Origin: a virus | Taxonomy: Duplodnaviria > Caudoviricetes | Reading direction: 5' to 3' (one strand) | Length of the DNA: 62,655 nt | Virus record (IMG/VR): IMGVR_UViG_3300034006_000003 | Span: 1-62,655 of that record | Shown here: positions 1 to 62,655 of the stretch, piece by piece | Layout of the letters: each line of letters begins with the position of its first letter | Numbering within the stretch: position 1 is the stretch's first letter | Made by a program: the position numbers and the translations under genes | Notes under the pieces: model-generated | Database searches by the model: none | Told to the model about the DNA's origin: nothing | Seen by the model: only the letters and a program-made list of their open reading frames with translations

Positions 1-480
1 CCAAGACTCGAAGCCGTGCGCGGTCAACGTGCTCGCGACGCTAGACGGCTCTGGGATAGGGGATGCTGCCACTATGGCGGCGGCGCGCTCCAGCGGCGAC
101 TTGCAGCCGAGCGTGTCCCTTGCGTCCGCCAGAGCGGCAGAGACCATGGAAGGGAAATAATGGCAGATGCTGACATTGTCGCCGCGCGCCGCTCGCATCA
201 GTGAACAGTTGCGGTTCATGGGATCAGCGGACCGATGGTCGGTCCAGAACTCGGACACACGGTCGGCATGGTAGACACTACCGGACAGCGAGTCAGAGCC
301 GATGACGTGCCCATTGCGGACGATTTCGACAAGGGAGTCGAATGCTACCATTTCGCCGCTGTCGAGCGCGCTCTGGATTTCGCCGCCTTCGTCGTCGCCG
401 TCGAAGCGGTAACCGTAGTCATATTCGATGCGAAGCCGAGCGGTGATGCTGCCAACGGCAAAGGTCCAGACAGTGTCCAT
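1..480 (-). CDS. Hypothetical early protein, 5' part (continues across the junction into 62655..62404)
   Basis: Manual translation from ATG at 480 (MDTVWTFAVG...AHGFESW) gives 160 codons with no stop; GAGAGGGAA RBS upstream; not in the ORF track. Confidence 0.8.
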   Translation of the reverse strand, partial: MDTVWTFAVGSITARLRIEYDYGYRFDGDDEGGEIQSALDSGEMVAFDSLVEIVRNGHVIGSDSLSGSVYHADRVSEFWTDHRSADPMNRNCSLMRAARGDNVSICHYFPSMVSAALADARDTLGCKSPLERAAAIVAASPIPEPSSVASTLTAHGFESW

Positions 481-494
481 TTCTCAATTCCCTC

Positions 495-752
495 TCAGAA
501 TTCCCAGATCAGCGCGCCGCCTTCATTGTGAAGGCTGACTCCAGTGTTCGTCCGGCTGTTGACGATGGTCACGCTATCCCATGCCGTGCGCGTGTAGCTT
601 AGGACCGTGATGCAGTCCGTTTCGAGCATATCAGCGGCAAGGGATGCGGCGGCTTCATCCAGCACTCTAGCGTTGCTCGCCTCATAGCGGTTCACGCCCA
701 GGACGGATGCGGCGCAGAATGCGACGTCGCGCGCTGTAAGAGCCGTTCCCAT
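495..752 (-). CDS. Hypothetical protein
   Basis: ATG at 752 directly after the stop of 754..1002; fills the operon. Confidence 0.6.
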   Translation of the reverse strand: MGTALTARDVAFCAASVLGVNRYEASNARVLDEAAASLAADMLETDCITVLSYTRTAWDSVTIVNSRTNTGVSLHNEGGALIWEF

Positions 753-753
753 C

Positions 754-1002
754 TCAGCGGTTCGCATCATAGCAGACCAGATGGTCGAAGCTGTTCGCCA
801 TGGTGACGTCGTAGCGGATTTCGCCGCTACGATTCTCAGCGTCCATCTGCCGCTCGAATGCCATGGCATTGTCGAAGAACTGAACGACCTTGCATTCGCG
901 CTCGGTAGCTTTGCGGATGGGGACTGCTGCCGCCTGCATAGCGGCGATGCCTGCTACTGAGACCAGAGCGGCGATAAGACCATATTCTATTGCAGATGCC
1001 AT
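754..1002 (-). CDS. Leaderless Flp/Fap (Tad type IVc) pilin-like protein
   Basis: N-terminus MASAIEYGLIAALVSVAGIAAM matches the mature Flp motif (A)TAIEYGLIxALI; GAGAGGGAA RBS upstream. Confidence 0.8.
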   Translation of the reverse strand: MASAIEYGLIAALVSVAGIAAMQAAAVPIRKATERECKVVQFFDNAMAFERQMDAENRSGEIRYDVTMANSFDHLVCYDANR

Positions 1003-1055
1003 GTCGGCGTTTCCCTCTCTCTGTTGCGGCTGGGCTGTTCCCTGCCGCGAATCAG

Positions 1056-1092
1056 TATCTAACGCCTTTCATCCTATCTGGCAATCATTGCC
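1056..1092 (-). promoter_or_regulatory. Putative leftward early sigma70-type promoter overlapping an inverted repeat
   Basis: Minus strand TTGCCA-N17-TAGATA; palindrome GGCAAT-C-ATTGCC at 1080-1092. Confidence 0.4.
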
Positions 1093-1316: not shown

Positions 1317-2138
1317 ATGGCGAGCGCAGCTGAAAAGGGCACGGGCTACAAAGGGCTGCTCGGCGACCATCGCGACTTCATGTATCGCGCGGCGAAGGAC
1401 GGAATTGACCAGACGGTCGCGCTACCGCCTCGAGCCGTTGCAAAGCGCTTCTATGACCAGCCCATCTTCGACCAGGAGCAGCGGAGCAACTGCGTCGGCC
1501 AGTCGATCGCTCGCCACGTCGCTTCCGTTCGCAAGGTGAGCCCGCGGTCGGCCGCCTTCGTCTACTGGGGAGCTCGGCTGCTCATCAATGAGACCCATCT
1601 GGACCAGGGCGCTTACATCCGCGACGGCTTCAAGAGCGCAGCGCACGAAGGCGTCCCGCGCGACGATCTCTGGCCGGACGTCGACGCCAATCTCTTCCTC
1701 GATCCGGTCGAGAAGGCGGACAGGGACGCGCTGAAGCGCCGGATCCTTAGCTACATCCGCCTGAACGGCGCTCCAGACTATCGCGCCTGCATCGCAGCTG
1801 GCTTCTCGTTCGTCGCCGGCGTGACGCTCTATAGCCAGATGATCTCGAGGCGGACCTGGGCGAGCGGGATCCTGCCGTTTCCGCAGTCTGGGGAGTATCA
1901 GATCGGCGGTCACGCGCTCGAATTCGGGGAATATGACGACCATTTCCGCGACAGCGCCTGGGCAAAATGGGCTCGAGATCGCGGTTTTCCGGACGCGATG
2001 ATCCCCGAGAGGGTCTATATCGCCGCCAATTCCTGGAGCGAGAAGTTCGGAAAGGGCGGTTATCTGGCCGTCGACGCCACCTACATCGACCATCCGTGGC
2101 TCGCTGCGGACGTCCAGACGGCCCGTCCGAAGGCCTAG
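1317..2138 (+). CDS. Papain-like C1 family cysteine peptidase
   Basis: DQEQRSNCVG (oxyanion Q, catalytic C), GGHAL (H), AANSWSEKFGKGGYL (N, NSW motif). Confidence 0.9.
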   Translation: MASAAEKGTGYKGLLGDHRDFMYRAAKDGIDQTVALPPRAVAKRFYDQPIFDQEQRSNCVGQSIARHVASVRKVSPRSAAFVYWGARLLINETHLDQGAYIRDGFKSAAHEGVPRDDLWPDVDANLFLDPVEKADRDALKRRILSYIRLNGAPDYRACIAAGFSFVAGVTLYSQMISRRTWASGILPFPQSGEYQIGGHALEFGEYDDHFRDSAWAKWARDRGFPDAMIPERVYIAANSWSEKFGKGGYLAVDATYIDHPWLAADVQTARPKA

Positions 2139-2861: not shown

Positions 2862-3656
2862 ATGGTAGCTAAGCCCGTTCTCGCCGATCAGGACCATGGC
2901 GGCGTCGCCCGCATCACGAACCTTCCGGCACCGGCATCGGCGAACGAGCCGGCCCGCCTCGCCGACCTGAACTCCGCGGTCGAAGGGCTGGCGTGGAAGG
3001 ACAGCGTCCGCGTCCGCACCGCCGCAAACGTCAACCTCGCGGCCCCAGGCGCTAATCTGGACGGCATTGCGATGGCGGCGAACGACCGCTTTCTCGCCGG
3101 CGCGCAGACGACGACGTCCCAGAACGGCATCTACATCTGGAACGGCGCTGCGGTGCCGGCGACGCGCGCCCTCGATGCCAACAGCGCGAACGAACTCGAG
3201 CAGGCCATCGTCCCCGTCGAAGAAGGGACCAGCGCCGGAACCCAGTGGCGGCAGACGCAGGTCAACTTCGTGCTCGACACGGATCCGATTGCCTTCGTCT
3301 CGTTCGGGACGTCGGCTCCAGCCGCCACTGAGGCAGCTGCGGGCATCGCTCGAGTGGCGACCCAGCCGCTGACCGACGCGGGTGCGAACGATACCGACTT
3401 CTTGACCCCGCTGAAGCTGGCGAATTGGTCCGGCCGCGCTCGGCGAGCAGCTGGCACCATCGGCGACGGCGCCGCGACGTCGTTTGCGCTCAACCACAAT
3501 CTCAACACGCGGGACGTGACGGTGTCCGTCTACCGCAACAGCGGCGTCTATGACGACGTGATCTGCGGCGTCGAGCGCACGACCGTCAATCAGATTACCC
3601 TCACGTTCGCGAGCGCGCCGGCGCTCAATTCGCTCCGGGTCGTGGTTACCGCGTAA
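2862..3656 (+). CDS. Putative virion fibre/decoration protein
   Basis: WKDSVRVRTAANVNL..LDG...DRFL...QNGIYIW segment typical of phage fibre proteins; C-terminal HNLNTRDV domain. Confidence 0.7.
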   Translation: MVAKPVLADQDHGGVARITNLPAPASANEPARLADLNSAVEGLAWKDSVRVRTAANVNLAAPGANLDGIAMAANDRFLAGAQTTTSQNGIYIWNGAAVPATRALDANSANELEQAIVPVEEGTSAGTQWRQTQVNFVLDTDPIAFVSFGTSAPAATEAAAGIARVATQPLTDAGANDTDFLTPLKLANWSGRARRAAGTIGDGAATSFALNHNLNTRDVTVSVYRNSGVYDDVICGVERTTVNQITLTFASAPALNSLRVVVTA

Positions 3657-4792
3657 TGGCTGACAGGCCGGTCTTCGAGGATCTGGACTTTGGCGGCTCG
3701 GCCAGGATCCTCGGTCTGCCGACGCCGGCGACCGCCTCTGAGCCAGCGACGAAGGCATACGCCGATGCTCTGAGCGCAGCCGAGCGGATCCGGATATTCG
3801 GCGACGGGTCCGACGGCGACGTGACGGTCTCGAGCACCATCACGCTCACCCGCGATATGTTCTACAACAACCTGACGATTGACGCCGGCGGCGCGATCGT
3901 CACGGGCATGAACAAGATCTATGTCGCCGGCACCCTCGATCTCACGAATGCGGTCGCTGGAGCCATCCGGCCGCACAGCAACGCGGCAGCCAGCTTGGGC
4001 TCCGGAAACGCGACTGGCACCAACGGCGTCACGGGCGGCACCGCGGCGAGCGCGGGTTCATCCGCCTCGGTCGGCGTCGGCGGCGGCGGCACGGCAGGCG
4101 CAACAGCGACGACGGCTGCCGGCGCGAATGCTGCCGCTCCGAGCGCGCTGAATGCGGGCGGCGGGCAGGGCGGGCAGGGCGGCGGCATCGGCGCAGGCAC
4201 GGGCCGCGGCGGCGGTGTCCTGACTCCGGCGATGGTGCGGCGGCTGGCGGACGATCTCACCCGCGGCAACGCATACATTTTCGGCGGCACTGGCGGTGGT
4301 GGCGGTTCGTCTTCAGCTGGCGATGGAACGAACACGGGCGCGGGCGGCGGCGGCGGCGGACCTGGTGCACCTGTCACTTTCACGTCGGCATACAACGTGA
4401 TCGTCGGCGCGGCCGCCGGCATCTTCCGGTCGAACGGCGGCAACGGCGGCAACGGCGGCACGATAACCGTAGGAGTCCTTTCCGGCGGCGGCGGCGGCGC
4501 TGGCGGCGGCGGCGGCTGGCACTACTTCGTCTTTGCGACGAAGACGGGAGCCAATGCCCAGCTGTTCGAAGCGAACGGCGGCACCGGCGGCACGGGCGGC
4601 ACCGGAACCAATGGCACCGGCGGACGCGGCGGACAGGGCGGACAGGGCGGGCGCGTGACCATCATCGACGCGCTCAATGGGCTCCTCACTGAAGTCCCCC
4701 CAGGCACGATGCCGGCCATTCCAGCATCAGCAGCTGGTTCGAACGCCGGCAGCGCCGGCACGGCCGGCGGCCAGACCTACGGCGGCCTCTAG
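3656..4792 (+). CDS. Glycine-rich fibre/adhesin-like protein
   Basis: FGDGSDGD motif and many poly-Gly tracts (GGGGGAGGGGG) as in polyglycine-sandwich adhesins. Confidence 0.75.
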   Translation: MADRPVFEDLDFGGSARILGLPTPATASEPATKAYADALSAAERIRIFGDGSDGDVTVSSTITLTRDMFYNNLTIDAGGAIVTGMNKIYVAGTLDLTNAVAGAIRPHSNAAASLGSGNATGTNGVTGGTAASAGSSASVGVGGGGTAGATATTAAGANAAAPSALNAGGGQGGQGGGIGAGTGRGGGVLTPAMVRRLADDLTRGNAYIFGGTGGGGGSSSAGDGTNTGAGGGGGGPGAPVTFTSAYNVIVGAAAGIFRSNGGNGGNGGTITVGVLSGGGGGAGGGGGWHYFVFATKTGANAQLFEANGGTGGTGGTGTNGTGGRGGQGGQGGRVTIIDALNGLLTEVPPGTMPAIPASAAGSNAGSAGTAGGQTYGGL

Positions 4793-23861: not shown

Positions 23862-24571
23862 TGGCGAAGAGCGTCGAGCAGCGTAAGTCAGATCTCGCGG
23901 CGGCGAAGGACCAGTTCCGGCGCCGCCCGAAGGCGCTGCTGTCGCTCGACGAGCTCGCGGTGCTCTACGGCCTCACGAAGCCAGCCTTCGTCAATCTGCG
24001 GAAGACCATCGACGGCTTCCCGGATCCGGCGAAGCGCGAAGGCAACGCCTACTTCTATCCGGCATACAAGGCCGCGTCCGCGCTCCACGAATATGTGATG
24101 CGGAACGAGCAGCAGGCGCTCGACCGCGGCCGGCGCTTCGAGGCGCTGGTCCGGCCGCCGGCATCGAATGGACACGACCATGCCGGCCTTACCATGTCGG
24201 CCCAGGAGCAGCTACGCGCCTATGAACTTCGCGAGCGCTTGCAGAAGGAAGCGCTGGCGCAGGGACAGCTTCACCGCTCGGCCGACTGCGCCGCGACGAC
24301 CGAGCGCGTCTTCAGTCACATCTCGAGGACGTTCGGGAAGCCGACCACGTCGATGGACCCGACCGGCCAATGGCCGGCGGATGTCCGCGAAGCCGTCGAC
24401 AAGGCCGGGCAGGCGCTGGTATTGCGTTGCTATGCCGAACTGAGGGATATGCTGGGCGGCCATGCTCACCAGCAACCAAGCGGATCTCCGGACACTGGAG
24501 CAAGAAGGGCTCGCCCTAAGCGCTCAGCAAAGGCTCGGAAGAGCAGAAGACCCGTGGCTTCAAAGCATTGA
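23861..24571 (+). CDS. terS: Terminase small subunit (Nu1-like)
   Basis: N-terminal wHTH (LSLDELAVLYGLT) then coiled coil; immediately upstream of TerL. Confidence 0.65.
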   Translation: MAKSVEQRKSDLAAAKDQFRRRPKALLSLDELAVLYGLTKPAFVNLRKTIDGFPDPAKREGNAYFYPAYKAASALHEYVMRNEQQALDRGRRFEALVRPPASNGHDHAGLTMSAQEQLRAYELRERLQKEALAQGQLHRSADCAATTERVFSHISRTFGKPTTSMDPTGQWPADVREAVDKAGQALVLRCYAELRDMLGGHAHQQPSGSPDTGARRARPKRSAKARKSRRPVASKH

Positions 24572-26660
24572 TTTCCTCCAGCCGGCGGTCTCAATCTCGA
24601 CCGCCGACTGCGCCGAGCAATATCGGTATGTGAAGCTGACCGACGGCGATGAGCCCATCAAGTTTCACCATCACGTCATCCCCTATTTGCGCGGCATCGA
24701 GGACGCCTGCGATGAATACGGGGTGACGGTCGTCGCAGTAAAAGGACCGGCGCGCTCCGCGAAGACGACCGCAGCCGAGAACAAGGTTTTCAAGAACTGG
24801 CGCTACGGCCCGAGCCTCGATGTCATCTGGTATATGCAGACGAAGGACGACGTCGAGGAATACTGCGAAGAGCGCCTGGAGTGGATGCTGAAGCACCACG
24901 AAGAACTCAATCGCCATGTGAACTGGAACGATCGCCGGCACCGCCTCACCCGCAAGCGCATCCGCGGATCCTTGGCGCGTTTCCTCGCCGCCACGCATTC
25001 GACGCTCCGCGGCAAGATGGCGCCGATCATCGTCGGCGACGAAATCGACGGCTATGCGCCCAAGGTCCGCAAGGGCTTCCTCACCATGGCGCGGAACCGC
25101 CAGCGCGAACTCGGTCTCGGCGCGCTCCTGTATGTCTGCTCTCACCCGGACGCTGGGCCGAAGGAAGGCGTCGACGCGATTCTGAAGCTGTCGCTCCAGC
25201 ATCTCTGGCATTGGAACTGCGTCCACTGTCATAAGGCGAGCTCACCGGCCGCCGAGGCCGAAGTGCGGATGAACTGGAACGTGACCCAGTTGCTCGAGGG
25301 GATGGAAGACATTGAGCGGTCGGACTTGCTCGACATGGTCGAGCAGGAAGCCGCCCTCGTCTGTCCCCATTGCAAGGGGAAGATCGACAACAACCAGAGG
25401 CTCGAGATGTCGCGACGCGGGAAGTGGCTCCAGCCCGGCCAGACGCTGGACGAAAAAGGCGAGATCGTCGGCGCGCGCTCGACAGAGAAGATCATGGGAT
25501 TCGTCATCCACGCCTTCATGTCCCCTTGGCTCACCATCGGCGAACTGGCGCGCGAGTTCGTGTCGGCCAAGCTGAATGCGGAAGACACTCAGGACGAGAC
25601 GAACCTGAAAGAACACGTCTGCAAAACGATGGGCGAGACCTACATGGGCGCGAAGCCCGAAGAGCAGATGGAGAATTGGAAGACCGTTCAGGCGCGGCTT
25701 TCGGATCCGGGCTACCGTATGGGGACGGTTCCGCATTGGTGCCGCTATCTCACCGCCTTCGTCGACGTGCAGGGCGACCGCTTCGAAGTCGTGGTTATCG
25801 GCCGAGGACGAGCGAAACAGTCGGCGCTGGTCGACCGCTTCGCCCTGAAGCAGACGGCCGGTTTCCGGAACATCGACCCGGCGAACAGGCTCGGCGATTG
25901 GCGCGTCATCGAGGAAGCCGTGCTGGAGCAGTCATGGCCCCTCGCCGTCAACCCGGAGCGCGAGAAGGCGGGGCTTCCGCCGCTCTTCCTGTCGGTCGCG
26001 AAGACACTGGTGGACGCGCACGGCTCGCCTGGCGTCCACATCAACGCCGTGAACTGGGTCGCGAACATCACCAATCCGCGCAGGCACGGGAAGCAGCCTG
26101 TCGAGTCATGGAAGATCCAGCTGACAAAGGGTGACGCGCACAAGAACAGCGCGTTCGTCGGCGCCTGGCGCAAGCTTCTGAAGGACGACAGGGGCAAGGA
26201 ACTGGAGCACGGCGTCATTGAGCGGACGATCAACGTCCATCACGGCAAGCTGATTCTGGCGCGCCGCATGAAGATCTCCGAGCCCGGACCGGGCCGGATG
26301 CACCTGCCCTATGACCTTCCCGCCCGTTACGTCCGCGAGCTCACGTCGGAATCGTTGGTGAACGGCGTCTGGGTCGCGAGCGGCCGGAACGAGACCTTCG
26401 ACGGCTGGGTCTCGAGCGAAGCGGCGGACGTCCTGCTGATGCCGGAACGGCCGGGAATCGACTGGGCGGATCCGGACACCTGGCCGATCTGGGCGACGCC
26501 GCTGCCGCGGTCGAAGCCGGGCGAACCGACGTCGCCGAATGCCGAGGTCGCGCCAACGCCGAAATCATATTATGACCGCATGCTTGAAGCGAGCGGGCGC
26601 GGCGGCGACCGGCCGGACGAGGGTGATGACGATGTCGGCGATTTATACGAGCCTCAGTGA
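24462..26660 (+). CDS. terL: Terminase large subunit, lambda GpA family
   Basis: KGPARSAKT (Walker A variant), IIVGDEID, CVHC/CPHC, LTAFVDVQGDRFE, GRNETFD. Confidence 0.92.
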   Translation: MLTSNQADLRTLEQEGLALSAQQRLGRAEDPWLQSIDFLQPAVSISTADCAEQYRYVKLTDGDEPIKFHHHVIPYLRGIEDACDEYGVTVVAVKGPARSAKTTAAENKVFKNWRYGPSLDVIWYMQTKDDVEEYCEERLEWMLKHHEELNRHVNWNDRRHRLTRKRIRGSLARFLAATHSTLRGKMAPIIVGDEIDGYAPKVRKGFLTMARNRQRELGLGALLYVCSHPDAGPKEGVDAILKLSLQHLWHWNCVHCHKASSPAAEAEVRMNWNVTQLLEGMEDIERSDLLDMVEQEAALVCPHCKGKIDNNQRLEMSRRGKWLQPGQTLDEKGEIVGARSTEKIMGFVIHAFMSPWLTIGELAREFVSAKLNAEDTQDETNLKEHVCKTMGETYMGAKPEEQMENWKTVQARLSDPGYRMGTVPHWCRYLTAFVDVQGDRFEVVVIGRGRAKQSALVDRFALKQTAGFRNIDPANRLGDWRVIEEAVLEQSWPLAVNPEREKAGLPPLFLSVAKTLVDAHGSPGVHINAVNWVANITNPRRHGKQPVESWKIQLTKGDAHKNSAFVGAWRKLLKDDRGKELEHGVIERTINVHHGKLILARRMKISEPGPGRMHLPYDLPARYVRELTSESLVNGVWVASGRNETFDGWVSSEAADVLLMPERPGIDWADPDTWPIWATPLPRSKPGEPTSPNAEVAPTPKSYYDRMLEASGRGGDRPDEGDDDVGDLYEPQ

Positions 26661-56590: not shown

Positions 56591-56617
56591 GTTCGTTCCC
56601 TCTCTCTCGTTTGATGT

Positions 56618-59611: not shown

Positions 59612-59804
59612 TGTGCTTCCCTCTCTCAATAGTCGTCGAACGGTTCGACAGCTTCATTGCCTTCGCATCGGTCCGCATCCGCCGCCTCTCGGCTGTCGAA
59701 CCGTCGCGCCTTAAAGCGGTCCCGAGTATAAGCCTTCCGGCTTCCGGCTGGCGCGACGAAGCCGCCGCCCTGGTCCAGCCGCCGAATGATCCAGCCGCCG
59801 CGCA

Positions 59805-60536: not shown

Positions 60537-60561
60537 TGTCTTTCCCTCTCTCTCGGATGTC

Positions 60562-60693: not shown

Positions 60694-60714
60694 CTCGAAA
60701 TTCCCTCTCTCTGG

Positions 60715-62356: not shown

Positions 62357-62403
62357 CTCAATTCCCTCTCGTTAAAAATATAATTAAATCCAGGGCGCGC
62401 GGT

Positions 62404-62655
62404 TCAGATGTCGCCGCGCCGTCTTGCGCTCTGTTCCATGTCCAGAGTTTCCGCCTTTTCGATTGCGCCGCGCAAAGCGGCTTCAAAGGTCAAGCCGGAC
62501 GTCTGGTCGACACAGTGTCCGTCGTAATGCTGGTCGTCATCATAGACACCGACCAGCCAATCGGAGTCGGTCGGATAGTCCGCGCCGCCGCCATCAGTAA
62601 CCAGAATGTAGACTTCGGGCCCGAAGCTTTTCGCCATGGCAACGCATCCGCCGCC
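62404..62655 (-). CDS. 3' part of the junction-spanning hypothetical protein
   Basis: Frame open to the window end (GGGCVAMAKSFG...), in frame with 480..1. Confidence 0.75.
   Translation of the reverse strand, partial: GGGCVAMAKSFGPEVYILVTDGGGADYPTDSDWLVGVYDDDQHYDGHCVDQTSGLTFEAALRGAIEKAETLDMEQSARRRGDI

Follow-up and report, generated by a model that had tools for sequence, protein, structure and literature searches.

The complete IMG/VR virus record IMGVR_UViG_3300034006_000003, which forms the 62,655-bp window analysed here (classed linear; CheckV 100% complete), carries at 754-1002 on the minus strand a gene for a Flp-type protein of 82 amino acids (aa) that has no leader. Judged from its sequence, this phage protein is a small single-pass membrane protein whose sole hydrophobic helix copies the one with which a mature Flp (type IVc/Tad) pilin begins, and we consider it very probably a real, leaderless derivative of Flp. 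The general view is that a type IV pilin, Flp being no exception, can be assembled only after a dedicated peptidase has cut off its leader, and a gene encoding the processed form directly tests whether cleavage serves only leader removal. An initial annotation of this stretch had described a Flp-like N-terminus followed by a soluble tail with two Cys, and both were borne out: the product opens M-ASAIEYGLIAALVSVAGIAAM, with A-S-A-I-E-Y-G-L-I-A-A-L-V-S-V-A-G-I-A-A-M after the Met, and continues into a polar tail of about 58 aa that holds C37 and C77. The features of the gene are as follows.

754-1002, minus strand: coding sequence, with its stop codon, for the leaderless Flp-type protein of 82 aa (open reading frame (ORF) list and translation).
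934-1002, minus strand: start codon and Flp-like hydrophobic helix, residues 1-23 (Pfam Flp_Fap).
757-933, minus strand: orphan tail, residues 24-82, with Cys37 (892-894) and Cys77 (772-774) (from the sequence).
1011-1019, minus strand: extended Shine-Dalgarno-type motif GAGAGGGAA, 8 nt before the ATG at 1002.
1069-1071, minus strand: in-frame TGA that closes the frame upstream of the ATG at 1002 (from the sequence).
488-496, 56596-56604, 59617-59625, 60542-60550, 60701-60709 and 62362-62370 (the last before a 518-aa gene), minus strand: further copies of GAGAGGGAA.

A search with the Flp_Fap profile (PF04964), which had been proposed as a check, matched residues 2-23 of the protein to profile positions 8-29 of 46 (E 1.4e-5), and a six-frame search of the whole record placed the match at 934-999 (E 2.1e-7), but the score stayed below the curated cut-off, as considered below. 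Flp_Fap was the only family listed when the protein was scanned against Pfam at E <= 10. The nearest ESM Atlas clusters were Flp/Fap pilin families (score 0.86), which we take as a lead only, and all structure matches of the protein in ESM Atlas fell under the bar. When the helix was aligned with that of a leader-bearing Flp in the IMG/VR record L064, 17 of 20 residues were identical, but only 4 of those 17 codons were, indicating that the peptide and not the DNA is conserved. As in Flp, Glu5-Tyr6 (counted after the Met) are followed by a hydrophobic helix of about 20 residues. Other marks of Flp are absent: in place of a basic leader ending in Gly, position -1, which is the cleavage-site Gly of canonical Flp, is Met, and the protein is large, with 81 aa after the Met compared with 39-60 aa in 24 complete leader-bearing sequences (25 were compared, one of which was cut by a contig end).

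The prepilin peptidase site reads G/XXXXEY, with requirements for Gly-1 and Glu5, and methionine aminopeptidase removes Met before Ala. Because Ala follows Met1 in the phage protein, this enzyme should remove Met1, and E6/Y7 of the precursor would then become E5/Y6, the register of processed Flp. The initial annotation had proposed that Met removal alone would yield a mature-pilin N-terminus; the parts of this proposal that can be read directly, a Met exactly at -1 and the E5/Y6 register, were found as described, while the removal itself is predicted from the enzyme's specificity.

The absence of a leader, also claimed earlier, held up when an upstream start was looked for. None of the 22 sense codons between the TGA at 1069-1071 and the ATG at 1002 is a start codon (ATG, GTG, TTG, CTG and ATN were checked), and with the frame closed upstream a leader peptide therefore cannot be encoded. 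The ribosome-binding site (RBS), which had been placed directly before the Met, is present as the 9-nt motif GAGAGGGAA but is spaced 8 nt from the ATG. The window contains seven exact copies of this motif, every one on the minus strand, while chance alone would give 0.70 copies; a count of seven was not reached in any of 100 shuffles. All seven sit 5-8 nt before ATGs that open ORFs (1002, 480, 62356, 60693, 60536, 59611 and 56590), and no copy was found on the plus strand or in the structural genes of the window. The starts that GAGAGGGAA marks belong to one leftward gene set, and the motif may serve as a translation signal specific to that module. We take M1 (ATG 1002) as the start because GAGAGGGAA lies at the usual distance from it, whereas no Shine-Dalgarno core was found before Met22 of the same ORF; on these signals, translation very probably begins at M1.

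Since the protein has no homologues, the proposed check on whether phage homologues also lack the leader was replaced by pattern scans for analogues, which gave one phage analogue, L007, with an unrelated tail. We use 'leaderless Flp-type proteins' for a set defined in this analysis by Met at -1, no possible or plausible leader, and an RBS. In IMG/VR, where the pattern scans may leave out the window's own record, M-A-x-A-I-E-Y-G gave 29 matches, one of which (L007) was hydrophobic and Flp-like, and the looser pattern M-x-x-A-I-E-Y-G-[LF] also gave 29 matches, with the same single case. L007 is a fragment of a low-G+C phage (record of 40,548 bp) whose gene at 3386-3703 encodes 105 aa, with a stop codon directly before the ATG, an AGGAG-type RBS and a Flp_Fap match at E 2.7e-4; it has only residues 1-21 in common with the window protein. 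The register-free pattern A-I-E-Y-G-[LF]-I-A returned 74 matches, and each of the 31 hydrophobic ones has an in-frame start at least 8 codons upstream and Gly (29) or Ala (2) at -1, so that none is leaderless. No leaderless Flp-like case was present among the 40 IMG/VR matches to M-x-A-I-E-Y-G-[LF], where the two hydrophobic matches were both internal to a longer frame, or among the 36 to M-xxx-A-I-E-Y-G-[LF], where the one hydrophobic match was a normal prepilin with the Met inside its leader. In IMG/VR, no register other than that of the processed pilin thus yielded a leaderless form, although the numbers are tiny.

Outside IMG/VR, 18 matches were obtained from 185,579 species genomes and 40 from metagenome contigs, 13 of the latter being hydrophobic, with two further Hint-family members below the hydrophobicity threshold. 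Leaderless Flp-type proteins occur in a Parcubacteria record (L134, 2317-2604; 95 aa), in an Adlerbacteria record (L127; 123 aa, Flp_Fap 36 bits) and in two records of Pseudoxanthobacter metagenome-assembled genomes (MAGs; L124 and L138), where a protein of 235 aa has a Flp_Fap match of 37 bits followed by a Hint_2 domain (E 6e-41). Most leaderless cases are cellular genes in small, roughly 50% G+C genomes of the candidate phyla radiation (CPR) type. They adjoin grpE/dnaK (L134, L220), tRNA synthetases (L231, L257), ribosomal proteins (L235) or DNA polymerase I (L241), and the neighbours in L124 are an aminotransferase and a histidine kinase.

When the tails of complete proteins with at least 49 tail residues (49-99 aa) were compared by BLASTP (E <= 1e-3), nine tail families were obtained: the window, L007, L134, L127/L221/L231, L220, L232, L235, L241/L242/L251 and L257. 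The Hint family was left out, as were L225 and L256 (identical, 44 aa, no Cys) and L218 and L250 (cut by contig ends). All nine families have exactly two tail Cys, 19-40 residues apart and with the second usually near the C-terminus; by our estimate, which is not a computed value, a Cys content of about 1% of residues would put exactly two in somewhere between one such tail in ten and one in four. The window protein resembles L007, L134, L127, L220, L232, L235, the L241 family and L257 in its Met at -1, good RBS, A-x-A-I-E-Y-G-L helix and two-Cys tail, and belongs with them to a larger group, as yet undescribed, of leaderless Flp-type proteins with two-Cys tails. It differs from the other members in that its tail is unrelated to theirs by BLASTP and its gene lies in a siphovirus-like phage of 64.5% G+C. 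The members from small CPR-type genomes are annotated, if at all, as Flp pilin and may be an overlooked protein class.

Some further observations were made on these look-alikes. The ORFs around the L007 gene were judged by eye to be PhoH-like and thymidylate-kinase-like; its product occurs unchanged on 14 contigs, is named 'Flp pilus assembly pilin Flp' by its source, is alone in its cluster and has a weak DUF6440 match in its tail (E 2e-4). In both L134 (2317-2604) and L220 (1866-2159), the leaderless gene lies between grpE and dnaK, and the two tails are unrelated by BLASTP. The Hint_2-fused leaderless helix is found in L124 (1653-2360), L138, L224 and L254 and is the only Flp_Fap match in those genomes. 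In a Phyllobacterium genome (L126, 5613 onward), an M-A-T-A-I-E-Y-G-L-I-A-A-G helix lies in a frame that is open for 358 codons upstream and is followed by Gly/Asp-rich, RTX-like repeats. Seven records of 0.71-0.77 G+C (L132, L136, L219, L226, L243, L248 and L252; two are titled Acidimicrobiales) have a frame that ends L-A-F-V-L-L-M-P-T-A-I-E-Y-G-L-I-A-G-x-x-F/L-N-x-L-D-stop, the Flp-like motif being the C-terminal end of a membrane protein.

The tail of the window protein is an orphan. No homologue of the protein was found by tblastn in 50,697 phage records or in IMG/VR, a word search of 5.8 billion proteins returned only the 82-aa protein itself, and phmmer against 1.8 billion representative proteins returned only the protein itself and one false match. 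This match, P0002 (E 3.4e-15), was rejected as a homologue, as it rests on one 15-aa motif repeated 15 times in a repeat protein of 2460 aa.

Whether the phage protein could behave as a ready-made pilin depends on its topology, on which the Cys pairs and the charge bias disagree. The conserved Cys pair suggests a disulfide, which would place the tail outside the cytoplasm, in the topology of a pilin, and this suggests an exported, pilin-like head. If the protein inserts in this way and Met1 is removed by methionine aminopeptidase, it would acquire the N-terminus of a processed Flp pilin without TadV/CpaA. The Tad platform of the host, if the host has one, could then accept it as a pilin or minor pilin, and the oversized tail would block or re-decorate the pilus, so that a surface structure usable as a phage receptor would be shut down or altered. 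Some action of the protein on the Tad/type IV pilus machinery of the host is plausible, but we would propose it only tentatively. A more specific role, in which it excludes superinfection by poisoning or capping the pilus as a subunit, seems unlikely. We are equally doubtful of the full proposal, in which a 'pre-processed', peptidase-independent Flp-type subunit is accepted by the host Tad machine, caps or poisons the pilus and represents the phage branch of a leaderless, disulfide-headed pilin class. If entry into or blocking of the Tad machine proved true, the protein would have no precedent among phage inhibitors, either as a pilin mimic or in targeting Tad pili; it would provide a new mechanism of receptor shutdown or superinfection exclusion, and the leaderless class would bypass a peptidase step thought obligatory.

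Several findings weigh against this proposal or against the Flp assignment on which it builds. The charges around the helix are the reverse of those in prepilins. Averaged over 25 distinct Flp sequences that bear a leader, Lys plus Arg (K+R) number 3.24 in the leader and 0.64 in the 15 residues after the helix, with the leader greater in 23 of the 25, whereas the window protein lacks K+R ahead of its helix and carries four behind it (R30, K31, R35 and K38). After the helix, K+R number three in L007, four in L127, two in L134 and one in L124. By the positive-inside rule, which is well established, the reversed charges predict an N-out/C-in orientation, in which the protein would be unable to polymerize as a pilin. 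The Flp_Fap score (25.2 bits; 27.5 bits in the six-frame search) is under the curated 32.2-bit cut-off, and what is missing from it is the contribution of the profile's leader and short C-terminal part. PHROGs and NCBIfam gave no match for the 82-aa protein, and one public gene call (P0001) begins at M22 and gives 61 aa. Because the search patterns required A-I-E-Y-G, the retention of E5/Y6 across the leaderless set is not independent evidence. No TadE (PF07811) or Peptidase_A24 (PF01478) match was found in the record by six-frame search at E <= 0.1, and neither a tad locus nor a prophage context was found around the cellular leaderless cases. In four carrier genomes, nothing but the leaderless gene matched Flp_Fap, and each of them encodes an A24 prepilin peptidase as well as T2SSF platform proteins; the design is thus present where there is no Flp that it could imitate and no missing peptidase that it would need to bypass. 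The occurrence of the same leaderless design in cellular genomes that show neither canonical Flp nor a tad-locus context also means that it is not an anti-pilus device specific to phages.

These findings make it necessary to consider a role unrelated to pili, in which a Flp helix was captured once and now serves as the uncleaved signal-anchor of a small early protein that might, for example, block DNA entry, act on another envelope target or, if N-out/C-in, perform a cytoplasmic task. The predicted N-out/C-in orientation would fit such an anchor, as would the orphan tail and the cellular look-alikes, whose neighbours are housekeeping genes and whose genomes gave no canonical Flp match; the fusion of the leaderless helix to Hint_2 in L124 and its position inside an RTX-like ORF in L126 likewise suggest a portable module. 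However, a generic anchor need not start exactly at -1, and the neighbouring registers yielded no leaderless case in IMG/VR; the two-Cys tails of all nine families argue for an exported rather than a cytoplasmic tail; and the helix peptide has been kept while synonymous sites differ. A generic anchor is therefore quite conceivable, although we would not assume it. The protein might instead be cargo of the lysogenic-conversion type, a functional minor or modular pilin that alters the adhesion of the host pilus without blocking it. The Cys pair in the tail is consistent with such cargo, and the G+C content of the gene (0.562, versus 0.645 for the genome) is moron-like; Tad pili are known to be functionalized by variable-domain minor pilins (PMC12075869), and Flp pilins of Vibrio harveyi prophages have been read as adhesion factors (PMC12482185). 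Yet the RBS motif of the gene is common to a replication-type gene string, so the gene is not an independent moron unit, and the problem of charge bias applies here too, which makes pilus cargo improbable.

The remaining alternatives concern the gene itself. If translation started at M22, the product would be a soluble protein of 61 aa and the Flp-like stretch an untranslated relic of a captured flp fragment. The public gene call P0001 agrees with this start, and so does the composition of the gene: the G+C content at third codon positions (GC3) is 0.38 in codons 1-21 and only 1/9 in codons 2-10, compared with 4-8/9 at 22 other starts in the window, whereas codons 22-82 have G+C contents of 0.61/0.38/0.75 at the three codon positions, which is typical of coding frames (the long ORFs of the window have a GC3 of 0.62-0.87). 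However, canonical flp genes in loci of 52-62% G+C are likewise low in helix GC3 (0.35-0.85), and we read the low GC3 of the helix codons as a flp trait or a mark of capture rather than as non-coding DNA. A relic would not be expected to keep a stop-free, in-frame and conserved helix with an ATG exactly at -1, and ESM Atlas contains the 82-aa form letter for letter. Together with the position of GAGAGGGAA before M1 and the lack of a Shine-Dalgarno core at M22, this makes a start at M22 very unlikely. The lack of any homologue for the tail and the poor AF2 single-sequence model (pLDDT 52.4, low confidence) would also be expected of a spurious ORF or a non-functional remnant; the coding-type G+C pattern, the RBS motif held in common with the gene string, the tight coupling to the next gene and the significant Flp match all argue the other way, and we give this explanation hardly any weight. 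By these signs, ORF 754-1002 is a real, translated phage gene.

Among known systems, the Flp/Fap pilins (PF04964; Caulobacter PilA) share with the phage protein the post-cleavage helix A-x-A-I-E-Y-G-L-I-A-A-L, with about 20 hydrophobic residues and E5/Y6 in register; unlike them, the phage protein combines the lack of a leader and of Gly at -1 with 81 aa after the Met, an orphan tail and reversed charges, and its gene lies outside any tad locus. The Caulobacter Tad prepilin loses a 14-aa signal peptide to give a mature pilin of 45 aa, a single helix whose N-terminal end lies in the core of the fibre while the C-terminal end points outward, as described in the available part of the report (PMC11067988). 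Given a mature pilin of this size, the extra 36 residues of the phage protein would either be displayed on the surface of the fibre or keep the subunits from packing. Minor pilins with added variable domains form the tips of Tad pili, functionalize the pili and need the prepilin peptidase, and the TadE/TadF pseudopilins and modular minor pilins resemble the phage protein in joining a pilin-type N-terminal helix to a larger C-terminal part that would be exposed on the fibre or at its tip, according to the accessible sections of the source (PMC12075869). Those proteins bear leaders and depend on the peptidase; the phage protein, unlike them, cannot have a leader, and it has no TadE match.

With the phage inhibitors of type IV pili, the phage protein would share the character of a small phage protein disabling a receptor pilus, a likeness to Tip, Aqs1 and Zip in proposed role only. 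PfsE is another inhibitor of this kind. Tip, Aqs1 and Zip target the type IVa ATPase PilB or PilZ and, unlike the protein described here, are not pilin-like, and no such inhibitor is reported for Tad pili in the available part of that source (PMC11656802). A Flp-type gene in a tailed phage genome has a parallel in the V. harveyi prophages phi345 and phiGANI1709, whose Flp family pilin genes are homologues of a normal Flp pilin, in the part of the report accessible to us (PMC12482185). A limited literature search found nothing on leaderless Flp pilins or pilin-mimicking phage proteins.

The gene heads a leftward string, whose surroundings are as follows.

1003-1316, no strand: divergent intergenic region of 314 bp, from which the Flp-type gene reads leftward and the peptidase-like and fibre-like genes read rightward (ORF map).
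495-752, minus strand: next gene, 85 aa, with its ATG 1 nt after the stop of the Flp-type gene.
1-480, minus strand: third gene of the string, without a family, running off the contig end, with GAGAGGGAA before it at 488-496 (ORF list).

The gene at 495-752 has no Pfam, PHROG or NCBIfam match; because its ATG lies 1 nt after the preceding stop and it has no Shine-Dalgarno motif of its own, it is probably translationally coupled to the Flp-type gene. No sigma-70-like promoter or intrinsic terminator was found in 400-1500, and the intergenic region held only short repeats. The initial annotation had placed the Flp-type gene next to a putative cos end and had called it the first early gene. The cos end received no support: the record has no end repeats, an ORF of more than 160 aa runs off its left end, and when the ends are joined this minus-strand ORF (1-480) continues in frame into 62404-62655, giving 243 codons. 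If the record is circular or permuted, the genes at its right end that carry GAGAGGGAA follow the leftward string, with a clamp-like gene and a ligase; the leftward string of the Flp-type gene would then include these clamp and ligase genes. The position claimed for the gene stands, as it is the first of a leftward module behind the 314-bp divergent region, and the module would probably be expressed early. A public copy of the record is 62,677 bp long, 22 bp longer than the window.

The phage is siphovirus-like and has a G+C content of 64.5%, with a large terminase at 24462-26660 followed by portal, protease and major head protein genes and a tape measure of 1708 aa; the terminase has at most 26% identity to that of any isolate. 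Rightward across the intergenic region lie a peptidase-like gene (phrog_16701, E 1.6e-4) and fibre/decoration-like genes (phrog_2647, E 2e-50; tail-fibre families). A receptor-blocking gene beside receptor-binding genes would recall llp of T5 and the cor genes. Immediately ahead of the fibre-like genes, the peptidase-like gene (1317-2138, plus strand; 273 aa) gave a PHROG 'peptidase' match that is weak and shows, by eye, papain-like Gln/Cys, His and Asn-Ser-Trp motifs; no Pfam match was found for its product at E <= 0.01. The fibre/decoration-like protein encoded at 2862-3656 (plus strand) resembles proteins of a Microcystis phage (52% identity) and a Thermus phage (48%), and is far closer to isolates than the product of any other gene of this phage.

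Genomes from two classes were searched for relatives of the portal protein. Of 401 from the class to which an alphaproteobacterial MAG belongs, 19 had such relatives, with up to 34% identity; of 401 from the class of a Streptomyces genome, none did. No leaderless Flp gene was present in five alphaproteobacterial genomes whose portal relatives are distant, and only one of the five had Flp matches, which were canonical and lay on another contig. No related phages were found via the peptidase-like gene, and the 518-aa gene led to one distant fragment (L258; 31% identity over residues 122-214), in which there was no Flp match.

No RNA run was listed among the sequencing runs containing the record, and run X2 gave no identical cover of the Flp-type gene. 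In the biocrust run X1, a 151-nt contig agrees with 954-993 in 34 of 40 bases and reads on as a normal leader-bearing flp gene, with S-G-A-T before A-I-E-Y; it was rejected as a donor or host marker, as 34/40 is hardly above the 30-32/40 of unrelated flp genes. DNA of the record is present in a biocrust sequencing run, which may be its source, and a soil run of another study contained parts of the record without differences.

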